DNA of 64,000 bases from a virus: positions 6,528-70,527 of IMG/VR virus record IMGVR_UViG_3300032213_002833. One strand, given 5' to 3'. The notes beneath the pieces were generated by a model. It ran no database searches and was not told where the DNA came from. It worked only from the letters and a program-made list of their open reading frames with translations. The position numbers and the translations under genes are program-made. This document shows, piece after piece, positions 3,001 through 64,000 of this stretch; positions within the stretch are counted from its first letter, which is position 1; each line of letters opens with the position of its first letter.

Positions 3001-5904
3001 TAATTGGTCAACAATATCTTCATTTATTTCATTTGTAGGTGAAAAAGCTACCTCTAAATAATTAATATTTTGAGTATAACTTTGAGATACATTTGCCATT
3101 TGAGATAAAGCCATAAATGGTGATAAAGTATCTCCTTCAGGCATTACGTTATTTTCTATTCTAATTTTATCAGAAATAGTGTTTCTAATTCCAGCTACAG
3201 GTTGATCTGCAAATGTATATTCTCTATTAGGAATAAAATTAGGTGTAGCATCGTAATAAAAATCACTATCAGAAGCAAATGAGTGGGTTGTTATCCAAGA
3301 ACCTGTTACTTTAGGATGAATTGAAATTGGTGCTATATATTGTTCTCCTCCAACTGAGGCTCTAAAAGCTAATTCATTTGGAGCACTATTTAATGAATTT
3401 CCCTCAATTGAATGAGGATTCATTGTATAATCTACAAAAACATTTTCATTGATAGGAACAGTATAGTATCTAATTTCTTGATATGATCCTGAAAATGGTA
3501 TATAAGAGCCAAAAAGAGATCCAGTTCCATCATATATATCAACATCATATGATGCTATGTCATATCCTGTAAAATTAAGGGCTGAAAAACTAACTGGGAA
3601 ATAACTAGTAAAAGTATTATTCCAATTAGGGGAAGTAAAGGTTACAGAACTAGATTCTTTAAATCCTAATATAGTTCCATTATCTCCTCCTTCATATATT
3701 TTATTTTGAGAATATAATGTGTAAGTATCAGAATTTTTAGTAACCATTACTGACCACCACCCACCATCATAAAATGGTAAGTAAACACTAGCGGTTTGAG
3801 TTGAAACACTAGTATCTGGGAAAAAGGTTAAATGAGCGTACTGATAATATGGATCAATTATTGAACCTGAATGTGAACCACTAATATAAGCAGATCCAGT
3901 GTATGTTAAAGTAACAGCACTACCTCCATCTCCATACCATAAACTTTGAGAATAAGGGATATTTGTTTGAGATAACCCTTCAGTTTTAAATCTAAACATT
4001 AGGGTAGCAGGAACATCATTTGGAGCATTCCAAGAAGTATTTAAACTCCAAGAAGATGAAATAAAATTACTTCCTGAGGTATTGAAGGCATAATTAAATT
4101 CATTTTGCCAGTAATCCCAATCGTTTGTGTTTACTTTATCTTTACCACCATATTCATTAATTCTTAATATAGTATCAGGAACACCATATGAAGTGATTAA
4201 AGCGCGTAAACCAGGTAAAGTACCTTTTGTTTTAAGTAGATATGGTATGTTGTGGTAAATGCGTTTATATAACGATTTATTTACATCATCTAACGGTATA
4301 TAATTGTTAGATGCTGAAATTAAAACATCAACATATTCAAATCCAGAAGGTGTAGGTAAAGATCCTGTTATGTTTGGAAAAGGGAATAAACCACCTTCAG
4401 GAGTTAAACCTAAAAATGCTGTATATAAATCTTCATTTGAAAAATTATTTTGATATAATTTAACACCAAAATCACGAATTGCATCAGCAACTATATCATT
4501 TGAGATACCGTAATATAAACGATTGTCAGCATTATATTTATTGGTTATATCTTTATAATAAATCCAAATGTTATCATAATGTTGGCCAACCATACTAACA
4601 AATAACTCATATGGTTCATTATCTGAGTCATCTCTTAAATATTCTGGGATGGAAAATAACAGATTATCTTTATTATTGTTATCATATGTTGAAGCTGAGA
4701 GGATTATTCCTCCGTAAATTGGGCTGTTTTCGTTTAAACTTCCAAACCAAGAATTTACTTGGGTACTTCCTATTTTAGCTAATTCATATGGTTGTACTGA
4801 TGTTGTTTTAGGCCAAGCATATTGACTATTATCATAGTATAAGAAATACTCATAACCATCAAAATTGGTTATTAAATTGTTTATCTTAGCTTCATATACT
4901 GCTTTACTACTACTTATTTCAGTAGGGGATGAAGTTGTTGAATTTAGTAAAGCTATAGAAGAAGAATATTGTTCTATTAAATCTACTTTATAATAAAAAT
5001 TTTCTAAACGGGTTTGAGCCGAACTAAAATGAATAAAATTTGAAAAATTTGTATAATCTACATTTATATCAATTTCTTTTTCTTCAAGTAAACTATTAAT
5101 TTGATTAACAGAACTAGTTAAAGAAGTTGAAATTAAATCTGAAAATGATAAAGGTAAAGTAGAATTATTAATTTGGTCTTTTAGTGGTAAATTAAAATTA
5201 GGTCCTCCTATTTGAATTGAATCTACTACTTGGATAGGCTCATCTTGAAAATCTACTTGATATGCTAATGGATCTTCTAAAAATGTTGTTATATATAATG
5301 TACTATTTACATTAAAATTAAAAGGAAGAGGTTCATATAATTTAACTAATATAGTAGGATTATTAATATCCTGGTCATCTAGTTGGATATTATTAGCTAT
5401 AATATATTGATTGTCTCCAAACCCTAAATAAAAATCAATAAAGTAAGGAGAATTTTCTCTTTCTCGAACAAAAAGAGTAGTTTGTTCTATTATTCCTAAT
5501 AGATCTAATTCTGTACTATCTAATCTTAATTCTGTTCTATCTGAACTAATTTCAGAGATAAATAAAGAATTTGGGGTAGTACCTATTTTAGGGGTTAAAA
5601 AGTTATAATATGTTATATATTGACCAATATTATATCCTCTATCAAAAAGACTTTTTTCAGGGTCTAATATTAAATTAGATATTACTCCTGGTTGGTTGTT
5701 AAAATTTGTTGGGAGGGTATATTCTTTAAAATCAAAAACAGAAGTTAATACATTTTTATTAACATCTAAAACTATAAATTCAATTTTACTATTAGTACCT
5801 AAAAATGTATCTAAACTAAATTGAGGTATTAAACTTACCTGTGAAGATTGGTAGGTTTGAAGTTGAAATGAGTTTGGGTCAATTTGGGTTATTATGGTTG
5901 CCAT
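1..5904 (-). CDS. Very large (>1968 aa) putative virion structural protein (tail/baseplate-associated), truncated at the window edge
   Basis: ATG at 5904 (MATIITQIDPNSFQLQ...). The same frame reads ...PYIITPEYIVPELN at position 1. The ORF track lists no complete minus-strand ORF here, consistent with a frame running off the edge. S/T/N-rich and next to baseplate genes. Confidence 0.75.
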   Translation of the reverse strand, partial: MATIITQIDPNSFQLQTYQSSQVSLIPQFSLDTFLGTNSKIEFIVLDVNKNVLTSVFDFKEYTLPTNFNNQPGVISNLILDPEKSLFDRGYNIGQYITYYNFLTPKIGTTPNSLFISEISSDRTELRLDSTELDLLGIIEQTTLFVRERENSPYFIDFYLGFGDNQYIIANNIQLDDQDINNPTILVKLYEPLPFNFNVNSTLYITTFLEDPLAYQVDFQDEPIQVVDSIQIGGPNFNLPLKDQINNSTLPLSFSDLISTSLTSSVNQINSLLEEKEIDINVDYTNFSNFIHFSSAQTRLENFYYKVDLIEQYSSSIALLNSTTSSPTEISSSKAVYEAKINNLITNFDGYEYFLYYDNSQYAWPKTTSVQPYELAKIGSTQVNSWFGSLNENSPIYGGIILSASTYDNNNKDNLLFSIPEYLRDDSDNEPYELFVSMVGQHYDNIWIYYKDITNKYNADNRLYYGISNDIVADAIRDFGVKLYQNNFSNEDLYTAFLGLTPEGGLFPFPNITGSLPTPSGFEYVDVLISASNNYIPLDDVNKSLYKRIYHNIPYLLKTKGTLPGLRALITSYGVPDTILRINEYGGKDKVNTNDWDYWQNEFNYAFNTSGSNFISSSWSLNTSWNAPNDVPATLMFRFKTEGLSQTNIPYSQSLWYGDGGSAVTLTYTGSAYISGSHSGSIIDPYYQYAHLTFFPDTSVSTQTASVYLPFYDGGWWSVMVTKNSDTYTLYSQNKIYEGGDNGTILGFKESSSVTFTSPNWNNTFTSYFPVSFSALNFTGYDIASYDVDIYDGTGSLFGSYIPFSGSYQEIRYYTVPINENVFVDYTMNPHSIEGNSLNSAPNELAFRASVGGEQYIAPISIHPKVTGSWITTHSFASDSDFYYDATPNFIPNREYTFADQPVAGIRNTISDKIRIENNVMPEGDTLSPFMALSQMANVSQSYTQNINYLEVAFSPTNEINEDIVDQLGYFNIGEYIGDPRQRFDLYNTYPDLDRLRNDYFEKYTKNYNLTDFIRLIKFFDNSLFKMIRDFVPARTSLASGIIIKQHLLERNKYPQPQMEWEDLDISGTLKPQWNDYEPGTVEHFEGGAGGVVNPFNYLNNTSQSWNETFDTPLGTVLMLHDDQDEFYNGEYSGSTIIVSNGVLNEPYPLNIQSFNYKQVHYYGTSSVEDSIFENNFLNSKTAPKSGEILFFNKKTSTVIPLFPPSPPITISFYATKYLKIAKVDCSGSENNVALENLNKVLIYNSISSSYTEYDLELLNEKSTYYLYGTTKFYNSSSLPNQVLDYYTLSLLSNSYQFPPGRNQMIIDSWNVEFGDTLSYFDTSSGILTFGNTPNTPISITASLSTSGSIPIFGKVSLTQLRNGVESSLSSKFHDLNTLTYSSLSSSVYPIQGDQYYLKLTRGSYYSGFVDIVSGIFEVTQSRAVITSSCDPVVIFEPYVTFPNFYNSDENALLNNVEDNRLSQNFQKVDYVTNLLTPTNFTQIINDNAQKAAVQDSNYTLKRNIIPRYKGSKSTSQKINKWTKGDTGTFGKIPTAENLKSYVAYGEMGGSWAPEKMNASSFQIKYLIDETGNIVTPNLSPNSLQTNQGTFITGERFKINSTIPGSGEATEYRKVIRGGARLEPILYTQSGSTPGAQWNTTMSFEDIIPSDVGAVGNYTALFRKSSQNLPSPETEYLINFNTAIYGGSYLASSGYQVPLNALQDGINLTFETQLNVQTYTITGNSPSSGIIYKIIIKNTTTNTEVGSVEYEIATGNINLQITVNTSQLNANDIYNVYVTWYNYDTGIPTTSLTSIINPPNSYLKVTQYPLYTQPITSSGINSIWGYVDTTNYPYVITSSNQTLVELYDSNVRQIDISGSGFNSIALPWSIKYADEFRFEGREDFTYQVGKIFGPADSGSARITQTGSIEVHFNADLPVSASSSVFNLDHFLIRRYVDDASQIVFEGFKPINSVGPYIITPEYIVPELN

Positions 5905-5907
5905 TTA

Positions 5908-6267
5908 TTAAAAAATAGATGAGGTAACTCCTGTTTGTAATTGGATAACTTGTTTTTGAGAATCTAATAGTTCAATTCTTAATTGAGCTATTTCCTCTTG
6001 TAAAAGTGTAATTTCTTCTAAATTAGAAGAAAAATTAATATATTCACTGCTTTTTTTAATTAAAAATTCATGCGAATTAGATTCTCCAAATTCAGGAATA
6101 ACATAAAATAAATTATTGTAAAGATCAAAAAAATCTTCAATAGTTGGTTGAGTTTGGATTTGTTGTTGGATTGGTTGAATTCCTAATTGAGTAAATGAAG
6201 TATTTATTACTTTAGAGTAATCTTCTTTACTATAAAAAATTTTATTAAACTTTACATTTTCACTCAT
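5908..6267 (-). CDS. hypothetical protein, C-terminal coiled coil, structural module
   Basis: 119-aa ORF, start overlaps the upstream stop codon. Confidence 0.7.
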   Translation of the reverse strand: MSENVKFNKIFYSKEDYSKVINTSFTQLGIQPIQQQIQTQPTIEDFFDLYNNLFYVIPEFGESNSHEFLIKKSSEYINFSSNLEEITLLQEEIAQLRIELLDSQKQVIQLQTGVTSSIF

Positions 6268-19057: not shown

Positions 19058-19300
19058 TTATTTTTTTACGTTCCAACTAAAGAAGTTGTTAAGCCATTTT
19101 TTACGGCCCGTACAATTACATTCTTGTAAACCAAACCATTCTTTGTATCGTTCTTGGGTAATACCAAATCTAGTTAATGTTGATTCAACAACATCACCCA
19201 AACCACGTCTTTGAAGTTCTTCTTGGGTCATTTCGTGGTTAATTCCTTTTGATTGTAATTCATTGATTACTTGGTCCATTTCTTGTCTTACGTCACTCAT
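19058..19300 (-). CDS. hypothetical protein (GLGD...CxC..RK..LN type)
   Basis: 'GLGDVVE...ECNCTGRKKWLN', a recurrent small phage protein pattern. Confidence 0.65.
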   Translation of the reverse strand: MSDVRQEMDQVINELQSKGINHEMTQEELQRRGLGDVVESTLTRFGITQERYKEWFGLQECNCTGRKKWLNNFFSWNVKK

Positions 19301-29339: not shown

Positions 29340-29365
29340 AAAAGAAACGGTTATGAAGCGTTTTG

Positions 29366-29448
29366 TAGTCAGGGCAGGACTCGAACCTGCACTACACCTG
29401 GTATACACCATATTAAACTAGGAGCGTGTTTCATTACACCACCTGACT
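29366..29448 (-). ncRNA. tRNA-like element 2
   Basis: AGTCAGG/CCTGACT-A acceptor, GTGT/ACAC D stem, GCAGG-TTCGAGT-CCTGC T arm; non-canonical centre. Confidence 0.7.
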
Positions 29449-37431: not shown

Positions 37432-39504
37432 TTATCTTATAATTTTCTTTGAAGTACCATCTTCGTACACCTCAAACACAACCCCTTTAACTTCAGGGCC
37501 TACTTCTTGCCCCATTAGATTAACATATTTAACCACTTTTTTTACTTTAATAGTATTATCTAAAGCAATTGGACCATATACTTTAAATTGTCCATCTATA
37601 TCATGTTGAACTAATCTATAGTAATTTAAACCAAAATAATCAATATTATCCAAATAATAATAATTGATATTTTCAGTTGAATTACCTGCTGATGGTTTAT
37701 TTGCTATTTCTCTCCAAGTTTCACCATTAATTGATTTCTCAACTATAAAATGAGATGAATTTTGTTCAGATGCTGTAGCCCATTTTAAATTATTGAATGT
37801 TGGGTATTCTATTCCTTCAAAATATAGAAGTTCTACTGGTAATGCTTGTGGGGAAGTTATTGATATTTTAAAGGTTCCTGTTGTTCCACCTCCATATTCC
37901 CAAACACGAATGTATATTGTTTCATATTGATTAAAATCTGATCTAGTAATATAAGACATTGCACCATTTGGGCTATCATCATCATCACATTCAATTTCTA
38001 TTAATGCACCAATTGTTCCCCTATATATTGCCATACCAGCATCTGTTATATTCCCAGTTTGTGTATCAAAATCTAAAGCATATATGTGTTGAGGTACTAT
38101 AATTTTAAACCAAACATCTTCACCAATGTATGAAGCACATGATGGTGTGGATTCTGTTGTTGTATTTGAAGAATATAAATTTGTATATGTTACATAATTA
38201 ATACCATTAGTTATAGTTAATTCAATGGCTTCACTAGGATTATCATTTGTAGGAGGGGAGGGTGGAGCAGTACAAGTTCTACTTATAGTAAATGTACCTG
38301 TAGTAGTATTACCTGTTGAATAATGGGCAATCCAAACGTAATATTGTTGTAAATTTGTTGTAGTAAATGTATAACTTTCAACGGAATTTGATAGAGCATC
38401 ATCTTTAGAAGCGATAATTGAAAACGAACCACAAGATATCCCAGATAAAATGACCATTTCATGATCAAACACTGCTGTTGAGGATATTGTTGTTTGCTGT
38501 CCATCCCCAGTAAATTTATACCATACACCAAAGCTAGAAGTTACTGAACTTGCTGGTGGTGTTTCGGATACAGAATTTAATGTTGTACCAGCTAAATTAG
38601 ATGTTGCACAAGGTAAAGATGTTGCTCCTGAGCAGAGATCATTTGAGGGGGGAGTTAATGTTGTAAAAGACCAAGTAGAACATCCAGTTGCTAAACCAAC
38701 TGAGTTTTGAGGAACAATTTTCCAATAATAAGTTGTTCCAGTAGAAAGAGTTGGAGTATATGAAGTACCAGCTTGGTTTGTTGATACTAAGGGAGGTGTT
38801 GGTGAATTACCAAAATATACATCATATCCAGTTGCTCCACTAGCAGCTGCCCAAGATAAAATTTGATTTGTTGCTATATTTGTTGCACTATTTGTAGGGG
38901 ATGTTGGGGACGCTATACATGAAGGAGCAGTTGTAGATGGAGTATATGTTACTGTAATGTTGTCAAGTAAAGCGGGTGGGGAAACTCCACCACTAGCATC
39001 ATTTCTCCACGTAAATATTATTCTACGGGTTGTTCCTGCAATTGTGTTTGGTAAATTATATGTTGTTGTAGCACATACTGTTTGTCCTTGTAAAGTTCCT
39101 AAAAGTACACGACTCGCATTTGAAGTAATTAATGTTCCTGCTGTTGGGGAAAATGAATTTATACAAGACCAAGTTTGTAAATAATCAAAACTAGCTTCTC
39201 CATTTAATTTTCTATTAAAAGAAAGTTGAATATTTGTAGCACCTGAGGGGATAACTACATCTAAATAGGCATGAACAGTAGATGCTGATGTAATAGTATA
39301 TGCGTAAGATGAATTATTGTTACTAATATATAAAGCAGAAAGTCCATTACATTGATTAGATGAACCTCTAAACCATTTATTCGTTTGGGTTCCATTAGTT
39401 AGAGTTAATGAATTAGCAGATTCAAATGTTTCACTAAATGCTGTGGTTTGAGCATCTAGAAATAAATTTACTGAAAGGGAAATAAATAAAATTAAGTTTT
39501 TCAT
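37432..39504 (-). CDS. secreted multidomain protein resembling Bacteroidota T9SS cargo (FN3 / beta-sandwich domains)
   Basis: signal-peptide-like MKNLILFISL...AQ; FN3 'LSW...GYDVYFG...TYYWKIVP'; 'PSNDLC', 'DVWF', 'LPVELLYF', 'YYRLVQHDIDG'; CTD-like 'YVNLMGQEV...KKII'. Confidence 0.7.
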   Translation of the reverse strand: MKNLILFISLSVNLFLDAQTTAFSETFESANSLTLTNGTQTNKWFRGSSNQCNGLSALYISNNNSSYAYTITSASTVHAYLDVVIPSGATNIQLSFNRKLNGEASFDYLQTWSCINSFSPTAGTLITSNASRVLLGTLQGQTVCATTTYNLPNTIAGTTRRIIFTWRNDASGGVSPPALLDNITVTYTPSTTAPSCIASPTSPTNSATNIATNQILSWAAASGATGYDVYFGNSPTPPLVSTNQAGTSYTPTLSTGTTYYWKIVPQNSVGLATGCSTWSFTTLTPPSNDLCSGATSLPCATSNLAGTTLNSVSETPPASSVTSSFGVWYKFTGDGQQTTISSTAVFDHEMVILSGISCGSFSIIASKDDALSNSVESYTFTTTNLQQYYVWIAHYSTGNTTTGTFTISRTCTAPPSPPTNDNPSEAIELTITNGINYVTYTNLYSSNTTTESTPSCASYIGEDVWFKIIVPQHIYALDFDTQTGNITDAGMAIYRGTIGALIEIECDDDDSPNGAMSYITRSDFNQYETIYIRVWEYGGGTTGTFKISITSPQALPVELLYFEGIEYPTFNNLKWATASEQNSSHFIVEKSINGETWREIANKPSAGNSTENINYYYLDNIDYFGLNYYRLVQHDIDGQFKVYGPIALDNTIKVKKVVKYVNLMGQEVGPEVKGVVFEVYEDGTSKKIIR

Positions 39505-39639
39505 ATTAAAAAAATTAATACTCACTTGAAGAACCTTTATAAGAAACCCCCATCTACCATGGGCCGGTCGAGTTTTGTTTATAAATATTTTAAATTAAAA
39601 TAAAACGTAGGAGGTTTGACGGTTATTTACTATTTATCG

Positions 39640-40032
39640 TTATCCTTTGAGTATTTGTTTGGATCCTTCCCAAGATCCTTTTAACACGACTTTATCTATT
39701 CGAGAGTCAATGTAGCTTTTTGCTTCACCAATGGCACGATGAAGTTCTTCTTCGTGTTTGTGGTGTTCTCTATCGATGTGGTCGATTTGATTTAATATGG
39801 TTTTTTCAACCATTGATACATCGCGGCCTGTAATTTCAAATTGTTTCCAAACTTCGCGATTTTTGTCTTCGATTTCTCGTCTTAAATCACCTTCAATGGC
39901 AGCACATAGCTGTTGAAGTGATTCTGTTTTTCTAGTTAATTGATTAATCTTAGCCAAACCTACAACAATAGAAGCAGATATTCCTGCTGCCACAATCGTA
40001 AGCATACCTAAAACAAATGATGTTATTTCCAT
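39640..40032 (-). CDS. membrane-anchored coiled-coil protein
   Basis: N-terminal TM helix, coiled coil, 'SYIDSRIDK'. Confidence 0.65.
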   Translation of the reverse strand: MEITSFVLGMLTIVAAGISASIVVGLAKINQLTRKTESLQQLCAAIEGDLRREIEDKNREVWKQFEITGRDVSMVEKTILNQIDHIDREHHKHEEELHRAIGEAKSYIDSRIDKVVLKGSWEGSKQILKG

Positions 40033-40108
40033 GTTTTCTAATTTTTATATGTCAAAGAACTCCTACGTTTGCCCTTAATATAATATTCCTTTTTTAAATA
40101 ACCAAGGA

Positions 40109-40137
40109 AAAATAAACCCTACTGTAAAGTAGGGTTG
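40109..40137 (-). terminator. terminator hairpin after tRNA-Ala
   Basis: AACCCTAC-TTTACA-GTAGGGTT-TATTTTT. Confidence 0.65.
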
Positions 40138-40140
40138 AAG

Positions 40141-40214
40141 TGGAGGATAACGGATTCGAACCGTTGACCCTTTGCGTGCAAGGCAAATGCTCTAGCCAAC
40201 TGAGCTAATCCCCC
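40141..40214 (-). tRNA. tRNA-Ala(TGC)
   Basis: GGGGGATTAGCTCAG...CTTGCAC...GGTTCGAATCC...ATCCTCCA; G3:U70 pair. Confidence 0.95.
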
Positions 40215-40591
40215 AACAATTTATAAAATAGAGTAAATGTTAAACCAAATATAATTCTAGTCACTATTACCCATAAAATAACCAACCATATACTATTACA
40301 TGGAATAGCTATAAACAACACCCCAGCAAATATAAATAAATTTCTCAAAAGCTTAAATAAATGCCAAGCATCTGTTAAACCTACAAATATTGTTGTTGAT
40401 CCTGGGAATTTGGCTCCTTCTGTTGGATCTCCATTTTTATATTTGTTTCTCCAAGACAGGGTTGGGTCCCAAAATCTTTTATTTCTAAAACAATAAAATA
40501 TAGAATATGAATAGTGGAACTGTAAAGTATCCATTATTGCTTCAAATAAACCAGCAAAAGCAAAAAACAATATGCCTATTAAGGGAATCAA
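40205..40591 (-). CDS. membrane protein
   Basis: 'SWRNKYKNGDP', 'LTDAWHLFK', several TM helices; 3' end overlaps tRNA-Ala by about 10 nt. Confidence 0.7.
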   Translation of the reverse strand: MIPLIGILFFAFAGLFEAIMDTLQFHYSYSIFYCFRNKRFWDPTLSWRNKYKNGDPTEGAKFPGSTTIFVGLTDAWHLFKLLRNLFIFAGVLFIAIPCNSIWLVILWVIVTRIIFGLTFTLFYKLLGD

Positions 40592-40770
40592 TGTTTTTTT
40601 CTATTTTGAATGTAGTAAACTAAATTTGCTACAAAACCTCCATACACTGCAATAAAAGTGGAGATTTTTAAGTACCAACTATCAAGATATCCATTTGCTA
40701 ACCAAAATGGCCATAAAATACACATTACACCTAAAAATACAATTGCTAATATGCTAGTTATGTTATTCAT
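40588..40770 (-). CDS. small membrane protein
   Basis: start moved to MNNITSIL after the ATATTTATA motif; two TM helices. Confidence 0.55.
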   Translation of the reverse strand: MNNITSILAIVFLGVMCILWPFWLANGYLDSWYLKISTFIAVYGGFVANLVYYIQNRKKH

Positions 40771-40786
40771 GTTTATAAATATTAAG

Positions 40787-40873
40787 CGGAAGTGGTAGGA
40801 TTCGAACCTACGGAACCCTTTCGAGTTCACTAGTTTTCAAGACTAGCCTTTTAAGCCGCTCAAGCACACTTCC
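40787..40873 (-). tRNA. tRNA-Ser(TGA)
   Basis: CTAGT-CTTGAAA-ACTAG anticodon arm, long variable arm, GGTTCGAATCC. Confidence 0.93.
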
Positions 40874-40890
40874 ATTTATAAATATGTTAG

Positions 40891-40974
40891 TACTCGGAGT
40901 GGGACTTGAACCCACACGACCAACTGGCCAACAGATTTTAAGTCTGTCTTGTCTACCATTTCCAACATCCGAGC
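40891..40974 (-). tRNA. tRNA-Leu(TAA)
   Basis: ACAGA-CTTAAAA-TCTGT anticodon arm, variable arm, GGTTCAAGTCC. Confidence 0.93.
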
Positions 40975-40979
40975 ATTTG

Positions 40980-41053
40980 CGGTGCGTATGGGATTCGAAC
41001 CCATGACCCCTTGCGTGACAGGCAAGTATTCTAACCAACTGAACTAACGCACC
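40980..41053 (-). tRNA. tRNA-Asp(GTC)
   Basis: CTTGC-CTGTCAC-GCAAG; complete cloverleaf. Confidence 0.95.
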
Positions 41054-41057
41054 TTTG

Positions 41058-41130
41058 AGCCGATGGAGGGATTCGAACCCCCGACCTACTGATTACAAAT
41101 CAGTTGCTCTACCAGCTGAGCTACATCGGC
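41058..41130 (-). tRNA. tRNA-Thr(TGT)
   Basis: ACTGA-TTTGTAA-TCAGT; complete cloverleaf. Confidence 0.95.
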
Positions 41131-41510
41131 AAAAAACCCCTAGTAGTATTCCAAGCGTCCTTGGCACTTGCTAGGGGGTGATACTTGGTTATAGGGTTGT
41201 CTATGAAGGCACCGTCGCGCACCCATAAAGCAGATCCCATTTCCCAATATCGAGAAAGACCATCTGAGTGAGCAGATCTAACGGTATGCCCGATGGTACT
41301 TGGCCTACGTCTATCTCAACGCAGGGGGGAGTGTTACATTGATTTGGGTTCAATGTAAAAAACCTTTGTAGACTCCAAACCATAAGGTAAAGAGCAACTC
41401 TAGAACCGGAGAACTAGAGGATCCCAATGTTTCCATTGGTGGGGTAAAAGACCTACCCTGGTACGCTCGATCGGGGGCACCCCAGTCCAGAAGCGTGGTA
41501 GGTACTGTCA
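41131..41510 (-). ncRNA. unassigned large structured RNA (about 380 nt)
   Basis: GC-rich island with at least 7 clear hairpins, upstream ATATTTATA motif and a 3' hairpin plus T6. Confidence 0.6.
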
Positions 41511-41512
41511 AA

Positions 41513-41866
41513 CTATAAATATTGTTTAAGTAATTCTCCTTTATAGTGTTTTTCATATGTTCCTCGAGGATCATCATAATATATTGCCATATACTTTGCC
41601 AATTTATCAAATGATTCAAATACAAATGTTTGACAACCAACACTAACAATAAACCCATTATGTACGTGTTTAATGGTTACATCATACTGGGCTAATTTAT
41701 CATTCATGTCTACAACAGGCATTGGTCTGCAATCTTCTTCTCTCTCATATGCTTCAAGTGCTGGTGTTTCATCTTGAGCAGATTCCTCCAGGTTGATAAT
41801 GTCTGCAATTGCGTCTTGAAATGCTCTTCCTAGATCTGCTACTTGTTCTTGTTGTCTTCTGTTCAT
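41513..41866 (-). CDS. hypothetical protein (start moved to MNRRQQEQ)
   Basis: 'VTIKHVHNGFIVSVGCQTFVFES'; the longer ORF call overlaps a tRNA-like element. Confidence 0.65.
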   Translation of the reverse strand: MNRRQQEQVADLGRAFQDAIADIINLEESAQDETPALEAYEREEDCRPMPVVDMNDKLAQYDVTIKHVHNGFIVSVGCQTFVFESFDKLAKYMAIYYDDPRGTYEKHYKGELLKQYL

Positions 41867-41945
41867 ATAACTTATTTTATTTAAAAAAGGACTTGTAAAA
41901 CCCATCTCCATTGAGGTAAGGAAACTCCATCCAATGTTTTTTGCG

Positions 41946-42069
41946 TAGTCAGGACAGGATTCGAACCTGTAATGGTTGTTAGTGGCTTTGTTGACGGGCG
42001 GTACAGCTTCCACACTGCATCTCCCAATACCAATTCTAACTCAGCGTCTACCAATTACGCCACCTGACT
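41946..42069 (-). ncRNA. tRNA-like element 3 with an extended (~70 nt) anticodon-position hairpin
   Basis: AGTCAGG-TGGCGTAATTGGTAGACGC...ACAGGTTCGAATCCTGT-CCTGACT-A. Confidence 0.72.
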
Positions 42070-42168
42070 ATAAAAACACACTCTTTAGCCTTCTACTCCC
42101 AGCCCCGAGAAATTGTATATAGCTTAGCCCGCCTCACCGCTGTGTGGGAACTGAAGTTTATGTGTTTG

Positions 42169-42233
42169 TAACCAGGAAGGGACTCGAACCCTTTGCAGCA
42201 TTAGGACGTTTCCCCGTACGCCAAACCCTGGTT
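42169..42233 (-). ncRNA. tRNA-like element 4 (acceptor and T arm, no D stem)
   Basis: AACCAGG...AAGGG-TTCGAGT-CCCTT-CCTGGTT-A. Confidence 0.6.
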
Positions 42234-42398
42234 GGGGGGTGGAGATTTGTAAACCAACGCATGATCACCCTTACGTCTTGTTTCTTTTGTCTTCGGCACT
42301 CCACCATTGTAAGTACAACTTAACTTGCGCCGCCGTTCACGAATCTTCCGAAATTCTAACGGCTGTTACTGTTAACTATCGGAATCAAGTAACTGCTG

Positions 42399-42470
42399 TA
42401 TTCGGTATGGGGTTCGAACCCATGCTTCCGCCGTGAAAGGGCGGCGTGTTAACCACTTCACTAACCGAAC
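42399..42470 (-). tRNA. tRNA-Glu(TTC)
   Basis: CCGCC-CTTTCAC-GGCGG; GGTTCGAACCC. Confidence 0.92.
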
Positions 42471-42599
42471 ATAGTTTTATTTCCTTTGTTTGTTTTTTCT
42501 GCTTGCTTCTGTTTTTACAAACGTTATCCAACCTTGTAATTGTTCTACTCTTTGTTTTGCACTTACTTTACTCATGTTTTTTATTTAAATCTACTAATT

Positions 42600-43070
42600 T
42601 TATTTTACTACTCCAAGTTCTTTTTCTACTTCTTTGATATGTTTGCATTTTCTATCACGAGCTCTCCATACACCAGGACAATCACAACGTAAAAATCCAT
42701 TTTTTGTTTCTTTTACAAGATATGTTCCACCCCCACTTGAACTTTCAAAACTCCAACTTTTTAATTCTGGTTGTTTTGGTTTTAATTGCGTTTCCTCTAC
42801 TTTAATTTTAGGTAAATTATCAATTACTATAATGTCATCTAAAGTTGTTTCAGGGTGGCATTCTATACCTGCTGGCATAATAACTGTCTTATTAAATAGT
42901 CTAGCTATTGCTAATGGTAAATATGTATGTTTTTCAACCTTGTATTTGAATGGCCTACAATGGCAAAATGTTATATCATCTTGGTTTGGGTAAACAACAG
43001 CATCTTTATTTAATACTATTTTTGTTTCTTTTCTACCATCACCGTACTCTATAACTAATTCCTTTAACAT
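42600..43070 (-). CDS. SWIM zinc-finger protein
   Basis: 'YLVK...CDCPG...CKHI'. Confidence 0.75.
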   Translation of the reverse strand: MLKELVIEYGDGRKETKIVLNKDAVVYPNQDDITFCHCRPFKYKVEKHTYLPLAIARLFNKTVIMPAGIECHPETTLDDIIVIDNLPKIKVEETQLKPKQPELKSWSFESSSGGGTYLVKETKNGFLRCDCPGVWRARDRKCKHIKEVEKELGVVK

Positions 43071-50037: not shown

Positions 50038-50661
50038 TTAAATATTTGTATAAAATTCATTTTGTTTCTCTTGTCTTTCTATTGTTTTTGGGTGGTTTAA
50101 AGCAAAATACTCTACATCAGGTAATGCTGTATATATTTTAAAGCCATCTAAACGCTCATGTACTTTGTTTACCCATTGAATTTCCGGTTTATTTTTCCAA
50201 ATACGCCATTGGTAATCAGGCCAATTAACCCATCCAGCATCATTTACTTTCCAACCCCATTTTGCAATGTGTTCCGGAGTTAAACCCTCTACTGTATTTA
50301 CTCGTGGAACTAGGAAAACATCTATATCTTCGTTTTCAACTAGTATATCGGGTAAAACTGCTATTAGATTTTCATTTGGTATTTCATCAGCATCAATTTG
50401 AAAAATATAATCTCCAGTACAAAATGAAGATAGTTTATTTTTCCAATCAGCAAAATGCCCTTCAAATTTTGCTTTATACCATGAAAACTCTCCATTCACT
50501 GAATGGGAACGGAGGAAATCCTCAATTTCAGGGTCACCATTTGTTTCATCATATAAGATCACTATGTTGTCTTGTAAACGTTTATGTTGAAGCAAAAACC
50601 CCACTAAACGTTGAATTTCAATAAATTCGTTACAGACTGTGATTGCGTACGTAATTTTCAT
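50038..50661 (-). CDS. glycosyltransferase family 2
   Basis: 'ITVCNE', 'FQIDADE', 'WPDYQWRI', 'VHE'. Confidence 0.85.
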   Translation of the reverse strand: MKITYAITVCNEFIEIQRLVGFLLQHKRLQDNIVILYDETNGDPEIEDFLRSHSVNGEFSWYKAKFEGHFADWKNKLSSFCTGDYIFQIDADEIPNENLIAVLPDILVENEDIDVFLVPRVNTVEGLTPEHIAKWGWKVNDAGWVNWPDYQWRIWKNKPEIQWVNKVHERLDGFKIYTALPDVEYFALNHPKTIERQEKQNEFYTNI

Positions 50662-60166: not shown

Positions 60167-60179
60167 AACCATAATATAC

Positions 60180-60208
60180 AAAAAAAGCTTGCACTAGGCA
60201 AGCTTTTT
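60180..60208. terminator. bidirectional-type terminator hairpin
   Basis: aaaaaagcttgc-actag-gcaagcttttt. Confidence 0.65.
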
Positions 60209-60228
60209 ATTTAAGTATTTTATTTTGT

Positions 60229-62091: not shown

Positions 62092-62120
62092 AATTATAAA
62101 TATGTAAAAAAAGGGACCTG

Positions 62121-62387
62121 CTATAGCATGTCCCCATAAATATTATAGCGTTTAACAGGTTCAGGTTGAATTTCTTTTTCCTCGCTTCGTATAACATAAA
62201 GTTTACTATCTAAAGGAGCTAAACGAAATTCTACGTTTTCTTGATTTACCTCAAACCATGCCTCTAGAGCATCTGTAAGGGATTTGTGGACTACTTTGTT
62301 TTTGTCTTCTACTAGGATCCAAGTGTCACCTTGTCCTTTTACTCTGGTTGCAATTAACTCGTTATATTCTTCTATTTTTACTTGCAT
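62121..62387 (-). CDS. hypothetical protein
   Basis: 88 aa, start overlaps the groEL stop. Confidence 0.6.
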   Translation of the reverse strand: MQVKIEEYNELIATRVKGQGDTWILVEDKNKVVHKSLTDALEAWFEVNQENVEFRLAPLDSKLYVIRSEEKEIQPEPVKRYNIYGDML

Positions 62388-64000
62388 TACATCATCATTG
62401 AAGGATCATACATTGGTTGCTCTGATTTTTTGTCTTCAGGTTTATCAACTACAACACATTCTGTTAATAGAATAGTTCCAGCAATTGAAGCAGCATTCAC
62501 TAATGCGTTTTTAGTTACTTTTTGTGGGTCAATGATACCAGATTTTTTCATATCAACGATAGTTTCTGTTTTAATATTATATCCACTCCAAGTACCTTTT
62601 TGTTTTCCAATTTCCATTTTAATTGGATACATATCACTTTCAGCATATCCTGCATTTGATAAAATTTGCTCAAATGGTTTACCACATGCTCTATGAACTA
62701 AACGTTTTCCATAATTGAAATCGTCTGAATCGTTTTTAGAGGTAGTAATACCTTCACGAGCATATAATAAAGCAGAACCACCACCTGGTACAATACCATC
62801 TTCTAAAGCACATTGTGTAGCGTGAAGTGCATCATCTACTCTATCTTTTTTCTCTTTCATTTCAGTTTCTGTACTTCCACCTACGTGAACCAAAGCAACT
62901 CCACCTACAAATTTAGATAAACGTTCTTGTAGTTTTTCTACCTCAAAGGGTGTTTGTGCTTTTTCAATTTGTGCTTGTAATTCTTCTGCTCTAGCTGTAA
63001 TTGTTTCTGCATTTCCACTTCCGTCAATAATAGTGGTTTTTTCTTTAGTTACAGTAACTGTTTTAGCTTCACCAAACCATTCCCAATTGAATTTGTCTAG
63101 TTTCATACCTTTGTCTTTATCAAATACTGTTCCACCAGTTAAGATAGCAATATCTTCCAAAATTAATTTTCTACGCTCACCAAAGTCAGGTGCTTTAACA
63201 GCACATACTTTAAGTGTACCTCTCATTTTGTTTACAATAAGTGTAGCTAATGCTTCGCTGTCTACATCTTCTGCTATAATCAACAATGATTTTCCTTTTT
63301 GCGATACACCCTCTAAAATTGGAAGTAATTCTTTTACTTGAGTAAAACGGTAATCTGCAATCAAAACATAAGTATCTTGAAGTAATGCTGACATATTATT
63401 ATTGTTTGTAACAAAGTAAGGGGATTTATAACCACGATCAAATTGCATTCCCTCTACTACTTCTAAATATGTTTCATCTGTTTTAGATTCTTCAATGTAA
63501 ACTACACCTTCACGTCCTACTTTTTCCATAGCACGAGCAATTAATTTTCCTATTTCAGGATCATTGTTTGCTGAAATAGTGGCAATTTGTTCAAGTTGTT
63601 CTTCAGATGTGATTTTTTCTGAATTTTCTTTTAAAGTGGATAATACTTCTTTTACTCCAGAATCAATTCCTCTTTTAATTTCAACTGCATTTGCTCCTTC
63701 ATTCAATTTAGCTAGACCCCATTTAACTAATTCACGTGCTAATAAAGTTGATGTTGTCGTACCGTCTCCAGCATGGTCAGCTGTTTTAATAGCGGCTTGT
63801 TTTACTAATTGTGCTCCTAAATTTTCAATTGGATCTTCCAATTCTGAAATTGTTTTTGCAACTGAAACACCATCTTTTGTTGAAACAACCATTCCATTTT
63901 CAACATATACAACATTTCGTCCATTAGGTCCCAATGTTGCTACTACTGCATCTGCTAAAGTGTCAATACCTTTAACTAATTTTTTACGAGCCTCTGCTCC
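62387..64000 (-). CDS. groEL: chaperonin GroEL (Cpn60), 5'-truncated by the window edge
   Basis: 'TLGPNGRNV', 'TKDGVSVAK', 'AGDGTTT', 'GMQFDRGY', 'GIVPGGG'; frame continues to 64000 (GAEARKKLVKGIDTLADAV...). Confidence 0.95.
   Translation of the reverse strand, partial: GAEARKKLVKGIDTLADAVVATLGPNGRNVVYVENGMVVSTKDGVSVAKTISELEDPIENLGAQLVKQAAIKTADHAGDGTTTSTLLARELVKWGLAKLNEGANAVEIKRGIDSGVKEVLSTLKENSEKITSEEQLEQIATISANNDPEIGKLIARAMEKVGREGVVYIEESKTDETYLEVVEGMQFDRGYKSPYFVTNNNNMSALLQDTYVLIADYRFTQVKELLPILEGVSQKGKSLLIIAEDVDSEALATLIVNKMRGTLKVCAVKAPDFGERRKLILEDIAILTGGTVFDKDKGMKLDKFNWEWFGEAKTVTVTKEKTTIIDGSGNAETITARAEELQAQIEKAQTPFEVEKLQERLSKFVGGVALVHVGGSTETEMKEKKDRVDDALHATQCALEDGIVPGGGSALLYAREGITTSKNDSDDFNYGKRLVHRACGKPFEQILSNAGYAESDMYPIKMEIGKQKGTWSGYNIKTETIVDMKKSGIIDPQKVTKNALVNAASIAGTILLTECVVVDKPEDKKSEQPMYDPSMMM

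Follow-up and report, generated by a model that had tools for sequence, protein, structure and literature searches.

A structured RNA of about 380 nucleotides (nt) is encoded within a phage transfer RNA (tRNA) cluster, at positions 41131-41510 on the minus strand of a 64,000-nt window (the whole stretch of DNA analyzed here, to which all coordinates refer). The window comes from a 70.5-kb IMG/VR virus record with a completeness estimate of 44%, which encodes phage proteins, including a baseplate-wedge protein. Two hairpins of this RNA closely match the antitoxin hairpins of AbiF systems in Bacteroidota, and for this reason we consider it fairly probable that the phage RNA is an orphan, bivalent antitoxin mimic, a decoy directed against AbiF of the host. 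The reading builds on observed hairpin homology and architecture, the linkage of the bacterial hairpins to Abi_2 genes, the lack of Abi_2 in the phages, and conservation with covariation. The original prediction, made from the letters of the window alone, had described a large, ornate non-coding RNA (ncRNA) among the tRNA genes. It missed that the two invariant modules of this RNA are, as judged from sequence, homologues of the hairpin ncRNAs that lie ahead of AbiF (Abi_2) genes in Bacteroidota. Because both modules share this homology, a concrete likely function can be proposed for the phage RNA.

AbiF (Abi_2/AbiD/F) is described as a HEPN single-strand RNase toxin of type III toxin-antitoxin and abortive-infection systems, with a cis-encoded ncRNA, AbiFr, as its antitoxin; descent of Cas13 from AbiF has been proposed in the same work (PMC12737573). 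PbAbiF, from a Prevotellaceae bacterium (PMC12373285), is a dimeric toxin (PDB 8VZ6) neutralized by an upstream ncRNA (PMC12737573, PMC12373285, PMC13064643). The dimer is reported to hold one ncRNA per monomer, with unpaired nucleotides blocking the active site (PMC12737573).

The two modules of the phage RNA correspond to two types of bacterial hairpin, here called type 1 and type 2. Their parts are as follows.

41438..41508, minus strand: 5' module, a type 2 AbiF-ncRNA-like hairpin (match to covariance model R2 at 41438-41513, 44.9 bits, E 3.9e-10).
41497-41503 with 41451-41457, minus strand: outer stem of the 5' module, 7 base pairs (bp).
41492-41496 with 41463-41467, minus strand: inner stem of the 5' module, 5 bp.
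41458-41462, minus strand: 3' bulge ACCAG of the 5' module, whose other elements are an ACAGUAC leader and a CUUUU tail.
Apical part of the 5' module, minus strand: a 22-nt insert with its own GGGG/CCCC stem, in place of the bacterial 12-nt loop.
41259..41297, minus strand: central type 1 AbiF-ncRNA-like hairpin (match to model R1 at 41251-41302, 25.7 bits, E 2e-4).
Build of the central hairpin, minus strand: outer stem ACCAUC/GAUGGU, inner stem GCA/UGC and 12-nt apical loop UACCGUUAGAUC.

The stems and bulge of the 5' module are invariant across 14 phage forms, and its 17-nt 3' strand occurs as an exact copy in 32 viral contigs. Two phage relatives (L019 and L028) have a 15-nt loop in this module that starts with UCCC and ends with GAUC. 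The central hairpin, with a covarying stem and an invariant loop of about 20 nt, is the most conserved piece of the RNA. Its outer stem in the window counts 6 bp, and its 3' internal loop is longer; its loop letters fall in the bacterial range, and it is flanked by a conserved AGU (41298-41300) and C (41258). Among phages, all seven outer pairs covary in an alignment fitted to R1, and an inner pair changes from A-U to U-A in three phages. One phage locus (L014, ~470-500) carries the apical loop CCCAACGAAC instead of CCCGUNAGAUC in an otherwise intact central hairpin.

The bacterial counterparts of the central hairpin were collected by scanning a degenerate 19-mer of its loop over one genome per prokaryote species. 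The pattern occurred 105 times in 102 stretches, which by their record titles are mostly from Bacteroidota (Prevotella, Porphyromonas, Chitinophaga, Algoriphagus, Flavobacteriales, Saprospiraceae and others); five occurrences were chance matches without a hairpin. The bacterial type 1 hairpin has a 7-bp outer stem, a GCA/UGC inner stem, a 12-nt loop, an AGUAC leader and a GUC-U tail. Its typical layout is a TAnnTTTG box, the hairpin, a U run and then, some 20-30 nt further on, a gene of about 300 amino acids. Of 100 real hairpins, tblastn placed the start of an Abi_2 homologue within 450 nt downstream on the same strand for 66 and none within that distance for 31; the remaining three are truncated at the end of a contig. 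All seven type 1-linked proteins tested match Pfam Abi_2 (E 1e-46 to 2e-56) and PADLOC AbiD, and the Abi_2 proteins behind hairpins match PDB 8VZ6, annotated "Abi family protein", with E values of 6e-40 to 1e-70.

A gapped pattern found type 2 hairpins in 14 of 401 sampled Bacteroidota genomes, at 15 places in all, and matched nothing in the reversed controls. An Abi_2 homologue lies 45-95 nt downstream at 12 of these 15 places. The bacterial type 2 hairpin is built of a 7-bp outer stem that stacks on a 5-bp inner stem, ACGCU/AGCGU, with a 3' bulge (A/C)CCAG, a 12-nt apical loop YCCCGUNAGAWC and a UUUUGC tail. In kind, this loop agrees with the type 1 loop, which GCA/UGC closes. When the whole phage RNA was compared by BLAST with the 401 genomes, pieces of only 23-35 nt matched in eight of them, which is uninformative beyond the hairpins. 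Rfam returned nothing at gathering score for 17 bacterial loci.

Model R1 was built from 82 bacterial type 1 hairpins only (65 distinct), and R2 from 14 bacterial type 2 hairpins only. In the type 1 set, 98.7% of cells are paired, six of seven outer pairs covary, none of 500 shuffles reached the score, and slid controls gave 31-47%. The type 2 set gave 98.2% paired cells, five of 12 covarying pairs, no shuffle out of 500 reaching the score, and slid controls of 25-45%. At E<=0.01, R1 matched all 22 phage sources searched. The central hairpin of the phage RNA belongs to type 1 by R1 and its 5' module, in stems and bulge, to type 2 by R2; R2 also scores the type 1 hairpin of the window, at 20.5 bits. 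Secondary matches of R1 and R2 at 62108-62167, 19189-19236, 60177-60216 and 50096-50135 (E 0.18-1.7) were discarded; the first two proved to be a terminator at the end of a gene in one case and coding sequence in the other.

The hairpin types were also compared with the proteins encoded behind them. In a maximum-likelihood tree of 36 Abi_2 proteins, 22 of 23 type 1-linked proteins fall in one clade (98/99) and all seven type 2-linked proteins in another (100/98), a clustering that near-copies inflate. By these sequences, the two hairpin types track two AbiF protein clades. A sample taken from the protein side gave a similar picture. Abi_2 genes were present in 10 of 151 genomes. Upstream of them lay a type 2 hairpin in three cases, a variant of it in three, another hairpin in two and nothing evident in two; a hairpin with the same kind of apical loop precedes six of 10. 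Together with the Abi_2 linkage and the flanks shared by phage and bacterial hairpins outside the search patterns (AGUAC leader, GUC-U tail), this protein-first sample is independent of those patterns.

Several bacterial loci depart from the usual hairpin-abiF arrangement. Hairpins stand directly ahead of type I restriction hsdR and DUF3800/PDC-M04A genes (L118, L104, L107, L138, the second copy in L066, and L155; L099), and in L066 a hairpin-Abi_2 unit is followed by a second hairpin and an hsdR-like open reading frame (ORF). The AbiF-type hairpin leader may serve other defence genes too. A different hairpin with another loop ("type 3") lies upstream of PbAbiF-like genes in L168 and L169, the L168 protein matching 8VZ6 with E 1e-68. 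In Rhodonellum psychrophilum (L078 ~6045-6165, equal to L151 ~1440-1560), type 1 and type 2 hairpins stand in tandem, each after a TAnnTTTG-like box: the loop hairpin comes first, and the second is built like the phage 5' module. A GmrSD_N fragment lies downstream, and the Rhodonellum genome has no Abi_2 match at E<=1e-10, so bacteria, too, keep orphan copies.

The phage hairpins share with the Bacteroidota AbiF ncRNAs the leader, the stems, the bulge or apical loop, and the U-rich tail. They differ in three respects. The bacterial hairpins lie 20-95 nt upstream of PbAbiF homologues, whereas the phage copies have no abiF gene behind them. The phage fuses two clade-linked types within ~380 nt and adds four hairpins and a 3' domain. 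Finally, the phage 5' module has an expanded apical loop.

The toxin gene itself is missing from the phage side. No Pfam Abi_2 match at E<=0.01 was found in the virus record of the window or in 10 further viral records, among them one of 96% and one of 100% completeness, that contain the RNA or the 5' module, and tblastn of six Abi_2 proteins against 450,799 nt of viral loci plus the window returned nothing. Because Abi_2 is absent from these phages and tRNA-Thr is the gene next to the RNA, the phage RNA is best described as an orphan copy and not as a member of a complete AbiF system. These data also bear on the possibility that it is the cognate antitoxin of a divergent toxin, forming the phage's own type III toxin-antitoxin system for superinfection exclusion or addiction. 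Such a system would fit the location of C. difficile AbiF and its RNA RCd22 in a prophage (PMC12373285), and it would fit the neighbourhood in the window, where seven of eight proteins tested have no Pfam family, the eighth having a DksA/TraR zinc finger. The searches of 11 viral records and by tblastn speak against it, as does the variation of the flanking genes from locus to locus, with various tRNAs or other genes downstream. The terminator of the RNA directly precedes tRNA genes and no ORF. The only conserved neighbour tested, the 117-amino acid ORF upstream, has relatives in five viral contigs, with the RNA beside it in two by nhmmer; the other three lack an nhmmer homologue of the RNA. 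A phage toxin-antitoxin system is therefore quite unlikely.

Homologues of the RNA are present in more than 25 distinct uncultured phage contigs. Exact-word scans of IMG/VR with three invariant 17-18-mers gave 6, 32 and 16 stretches, and modular forms were found with a hidden Markov model built from the first seven sequences. The long forms, such as that of the window, measure ~380 nt; medium forms of ~320 nt lack two hairpins, and short forms of ~220 nt lack four. In some loci the 5' module occurs by itself: it is followed by a terminator in L031 and immediately by a tRNA in L024, and L022 and L029 hold it in other settings. Other loci carry only the central and 3' parts, which come after a tRNA in L041 and L039, after an AT-rich stretch in L045, and in L044 after a TAnnTTTG box that we take to be the Bacteroidetes-type promoter consensus. 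In minimal forms, one hairpin and a U run are all that is present (L040, L043, L046). The original prediction of an ornate RNA thus holds in that a real structured RNA is present; it does not hold as one indivisible fold, since the family is modular and includes ~220-nt and single-module forms. The sequencing runs that contain the RNA mostly bear lake-water, freshwater or riverine labels, from which no habitat is claimed beyond the four RNA runs described below. Among cultured phages, blastn in its "distant" setting with the RNA, and megablast with the 12 kb around it, matched tRNA genes only, and Rfam at gathering score gave nothing except tRNAs for six phage loci.

Conservation of the RNA was quantified in an RNAalifold alignment of 14 long and medium phage forms. 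The alignment contains 78 pairs, 31 of them with compensatory change. Across three phages, the RNA is 92% identical and the product of the flanking ORF 74-79%. These values bear on whether the RNA could be a non-functional remnant of host abiF leader DNA acquired by recombination, for which there is the precedent that phage PhiTE can capture toxI in this way (PMC3475682). A remnant would hardly be kept in so many distinct contigs with compensatory changes at 31 of 78 pairs, nor be conserved beyond the neighbouring protein. It would also have to join two hairpin types that stand side by side in one bacterial genome only, that of Rhodonellum (L078/L151). We regard this origin as very improbable.

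The remaining parts of the RNA and its borders are as follows.

41514..41522, minus strand: AT-rich box ATATTTATA, overlapping the stop codon of the upstream 117-amino acid ORF.
41424-41439, minus strand: accessory hairpin CCAAUG-GAAA-CAUUGG, with compensatory change at three of five pairs; absent from the ~220-nt forms.
41398-41419, minus strand: accessory hairpin CUCUAG...CUAGAG, with compensatory change at five of six pairs; absent from the ~220-nt forms.
41362-41388, minus strand: accessory hairpin ACCUU/AAGGU, in only seven of 14 aligned forms.
41334-41358, minus strand: accessory hairpin UUACAUUGA-ACCCAAA-UCAAUGUAA, in only seven of 14 aligned forms; 96.8% paired, with two covarying pairs.
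41304..41325, minus strand: hairpin CCUGCGUU-GAGAUA-GACGUAGG, directly 5' of the central hairpin, with four of eight pairs changed on both sides.
41180..41251, minus strand: 3' domain with the conserved segments GGGAA and UAUAACC, enclosed by the long-range helix GAUAUUGG/CCAAGUAUC.
41131..41178, minus strand: intrinsic terminator CCCCUAG...CUAGGGG plus U6, one base before tRNA-Thr, with four of seven pairs covarying.

The hairpin CCUGCGUU-GAGAUA-GACGUAGG is retained in all 14 sequences, and a similar hairpin precedes the loop hairpin in L142. The inner part of the terminator hairpin varies between family members. In the 3' domain, RNAalifold pairs alignment columns 294-301 with 358-366 with covariation present, and the closing helix of the short forms reads GUUA..UGG/CCA..UAAC. 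The loop of the UUACAUUGA hairpin is ACCCAAA in the window and ACCCGUAA in L007 and L012. Because ACCCGUAA resembles the start of an AbiF-type apical loop, this hairpin could be a degenerate third mimic; neither R1 nor R2 detects it. The extra hairpins and the 3' domain might contribute stability, spacing or contacts with other partners.

These parts bring up the possibility that the RNA has a structural job in the phage tRNA cluster that is unrelated to AbiF, as a stable RNA acting for example in tRNA processing or in a role like that of the T4 species 1 and 2 RNAs, its AbiF-type hairpins being shared building blocks or a chance acquisition. In favour of it, 31 of 37 locus rows have a tRNA on the same strand no more than 600 nt from the RNA, and for about half of the length, comprising the accessory hairpins and the 3' domain, no AbiF counterpart was found. 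The two invariant modules, however, are exactly the parts held in common with Abi_2-linked bacterial hairpins, and the accessory parts are dispensable in the ~220-nt forms. Minimal forms such as L040 (49.8 bits with R1) are reduced to the AbiF-type hairpin, and no tRNA-related family or motif matched the RNA. We therefore judge a role unrelated to AbiF to be unlikely.

The helices named in the original prediction were compared with the same alignment. Seven of eight are backed: ACCTACC/GGTAGGT with ACGCT/AGCGT, CCAATG/CATTGG, CTCTAG/CTAGAG, CCTGCGTT/GACGTAGG, CCCCTAG/CTAGGGG, and TTACATTGA/TCAATGTAA, which is 96.8% paired with both sides changed at two pairs. The eighth, ACCTT/AAGGT, is invariant in all seven sequences that have it and hence uninformative; its low pairing count reflects an alignment offset of the window row. 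The proposed long-range pairing GGCA..ACCGTT/GACGGTGCC was not supported, with 74.6% of cells paired and five of nine pairs departing by unpaired cells only. Two tertiary contacts were not borne out: in the loop-loop pairing TTTGG/CCAAA, two pairs are broken in 4-6 of seven sequences, and GGAGT/ACTCC shows no covariation and has two pairs broken in 4-5 of seven.

The G+C content of 41131-41510 is 0.46-0.50 in surroundings of ~0.30, and the ORFs that overlap it are short ones only. The minimum free energy of -129.7 kcal/mol corresponds to z = -3.32, and none of 100 shuffles folded equally well. With the compensatory changes, these values bear out a conserved structured ncRNA within the phage tRNA cluster. 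Read on the minus strand, the stretch begins two bases past the TAG stop codon (41513-41515) of the 117-amino acid ORF and finishes in a GC-rich hairpin with T6, one base ahead of tRNA-Thr (41057-41130). tRNA-Glu is upstream, and tRNAs Thr, Asp, Leu and Ser follow downstream. AT-rich boxes like ATATTTATA occur 8-12 nt upstream of the AGTACC start of the RNA in many other phage loci, which suggests that the ATATTTATA box is likely a phage promoter element. Transcription of the RNA within the tRNA cluster thus probably starts at a promoter of its own and stops at its own terminator. Stable non-tRNA RNAs of a tRNA cluster have a precedent in the species 1 and 2 RNAs (rnaC, rnaD) of phage T4, which, like the RNA described here, lie within the tRNA cluster of a large phage. 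To our knowledge, the T4 RNAs have no assigned link to a defence system and no known sequence relation to the phage RNA.

Comparison of the RNA with known families gave no match. Rfam 15 called tRNAs only in the window at gathering score, and nothing within the RNA at E<=10 over 40000-43000. RNase P and transfer-messenger RNA (tmRNA), which had been excluded in the original prediction by their missing hallmarks, are indeed absent, with no ARAGORN tmRNA call and no Rfam match. That prediction had favoured a relative of GOLLD or ROOL, or else a new class. A tRNA-adjacent position in a phage and a size of several hundred nucleotides would suit GOLLD or ROOL; neither model matched at E<=10, however, and the core of the RNA is only ~220 nt of simple hairpins. 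Such kinship is hardly credible.

RNA-library data also contain the element. Contigs from four metatranscriptome runs cover most of it (41187-41499). The runs belong to four studies with freshwater and riverine labels, three of which share year and habitat label. Examples are contigs of 334 nt over 41190-41499, 299 nt over 41187-41476 and 275 nt over 41219-41489. One contig joins 41330 to 41398 and so represents a form without 41331-41397. In these runs, the upstream ORF (41513-41866) is almost uncovered; the contigs break off near 41476-41499, which does not fix the transcript ends.

Other features of the window and its relatives were recorded in the course of the analysis. Between tRNA-Glu and an odd 124-nt tRNA, at 42070-42397 on the minus strand, is another GC-rich stretch (0.44-0.50) that has no long ORF. 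About 160 nt of this stretch are nearly identical in the related phage L002, and a tRNA-like acceptor/T-arm pair lies near 42175-42240; the stretch folds no better than shuffles (z +1.16) and has no Rfam match. The odd tRNA (41946-42069, minus strand) is an Rfam call of 124 nt and 37.1 bits, absent from the ARAGORN calls, with tRNA-like acceptor, D and T arms and an insert of ~50 nt; it overlaps the longest ORF reading (41513-42013). At 29365-29448 (minus strand), ARAGORN reports a "tRNA-???" with a two-base anticodon (tt), which scores 44.1 bits with the Rfam tRNA model, and L002 has a second gene of the same sort at 3664-3749. Both are possibly tRNAs with an unusual anticodon loop. A full-length GroEL-type chaperonin is encoded at 62387-63934 on the minus strand (phrog_5725, E 7e-142). 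The 697-amino acid ORF at 37432-39525 (minus strand) has a signal-peptide-like start and T-, S- and N-rich repeats; it has no match in Pfam or PHROG, and its C-terminal region presumably resembles a Bacteroidota secretion-sorting domain.

Our studies allow a mechanism to be proposed for the antitoxin mimic. The phage RNA displays two hairpins, each of the type that precedes one of the two AbiF clades. During infection, the host's own antitoxin RNA would run down, and the phage RNA would keep AbiF occupied. The toxin would thus stay silent, and the phage cycle could be completed. A different use of the same binding would be recruitment, in which the phage RNA redirects the AbiF RNase to host or competitor RNAs or to the processing of its own tRNA precursors. 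AbiF is reported to cleave and process its own ncRNA and is regarded as an ancestor of Cas13 (PMC12737573), and the RNA sits within tRNA transcription units. No guide-like or variable-spacer sequence is present, however, and the conserved parts are the antitoxin hairpin itself. We hold recruitment to be decidedly unlikely.

Mimicry of a defence RNA by a phage has precedents, and the decoy proposed here can be set against them. The pseudo-ToxI of Pectobacterium phage PhiTE is a phage ncRNA that resembles a host type III antitoxin RNA (Blower et al. 2012; PMC3475682). Like the RNA of the window, it resembles the RNA of a host abortive-infection antitoxin and has no attached toxin gene. ToxI, however, is a tandem 36-nt repeat cut by the non-HEPN toxin ToxN, whereas here single structured hairpins of two types are found; and pseudo-ToxI is an expansion seen in laboratory escape, whereas this RNA is fixed and widespread in uncultured phages. 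RNA anti-CRISPRs (Racrs) are solitary viral copies of a defence system's RNA partner that act by molecular mimicry (Camara-Wilpert et al. 2023; PMC10651486). The phage RNA is likewise a solitary viral copy of the RNA partner of a defence nuclease, and the logic is parallel because AbiF is regarded as the Cas13 ancestor. The difference is that Racrs mimic CRISPR repeats and trap Cas proteins, whereas the phage RNA mimics the antitoxin of a toxin-antitoxin system. The closest bivalent case is RCd22 of C. difficile, which has two abiF motifs (RF03085) and neutralizes AbiF in cis and in trans, with its hairpin stems required (PMC12373285). Both RNAs combine two hairpins of the AbiF-binding type with a terminator in one molecule, which in RCd22 matches the dimeric toxin. 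RCd22 differs in lying in cis before abiF and in its motif, since RF03085 matches neither the phage RNA nor the Bacteroidota hairpins at E<=10.

Several points weigh against an antitoxin mimic. AbiF binding, neutralization and the timing of expression are inferred from sequence, and carriage of AbiF by the phage host is presumed. The likeness to AbiFr was judged from hairpins upstream of homologues of PbAbiF, whose ncRNA Zilberzwige-Tal et al. (Cell 2025) reportedly solved; the abiF motif RF03085 matches neither 40000-43000 of the window nor seven bacterial hairpin loci at E<=10. The loop identity between phage and bacterial hairpins is partly circular, because the bacterial sets were gathered with patterns derived from the phage RNA. 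About half of the 380 nt, namely four hairpins and the 3' domain, is unaccounted for, as is the third of bacterial hairpins without abiF. In 30 loci holding the 31 Abi_2-less type 1 hairpins, Abi_2 was found anywhere only in L066; these hairpins are solitary or lie ahead of type I hsdR, DUF3800 or unrelated genes. With 31 of 100 lacking a nearby Abi_2 gene, the hairpin is not exclusive to abiF. In the window, the 5' module does not have the 12-nt apical loop of type 2 and carries a longer insert with an extra stem instead; should it be the apical loop that blocks AbiF, the module may have no inhibitory effect. Finally, the RNA-library contigs show presence in RNA libraries, which does not prove transcription, and their depths cannot rank expression.

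Among abortive-infection systems, AbiF/Abi_2 is a common one. In the literature searched, which lay outside the primary Cell 2025 paper and its supplements, no countermeasure was found by which a phage copies an AbiF antitoxin RNA, and a November 2026 review of phage countermeasures has no mention of AbiF. The mimicry of antitoxin RNA as such is known; the new elements are its application to AbiF, the joining of two clade-specific hairpins, and a fixed position within tRNA clusters. The co-variation of hairpin type and AbiF clade in Bacteroidota is useful for annotation, as the Rfam abiF model misses these systems. It is about evenly balanced whether the proposal extends to a natural, widespread bivalent RNA sponge, in which one transcript with the antitoxin hairpins of two AbiF clades would disarm several versions of the toxin and the tRNA cluster would act as an RNA-level counter-defence island. 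In that case, the RNA would be the first anti-defence RNA directed at AbiF and a natural inhibitor scaffold for AbiF and Cas13-like enzymes, and the phage tRNA cluster would hold decoys against RNases beside its spare tRNAs. If the antitoxin mimic is correct, RNA mimicry as a means of counter-defence would reach beyond ToxIN and CRISPR to HEPN toxins, simple, testable AbiF inhibitors would become available, and an RNA family of uncultured phages would be assigned a function.

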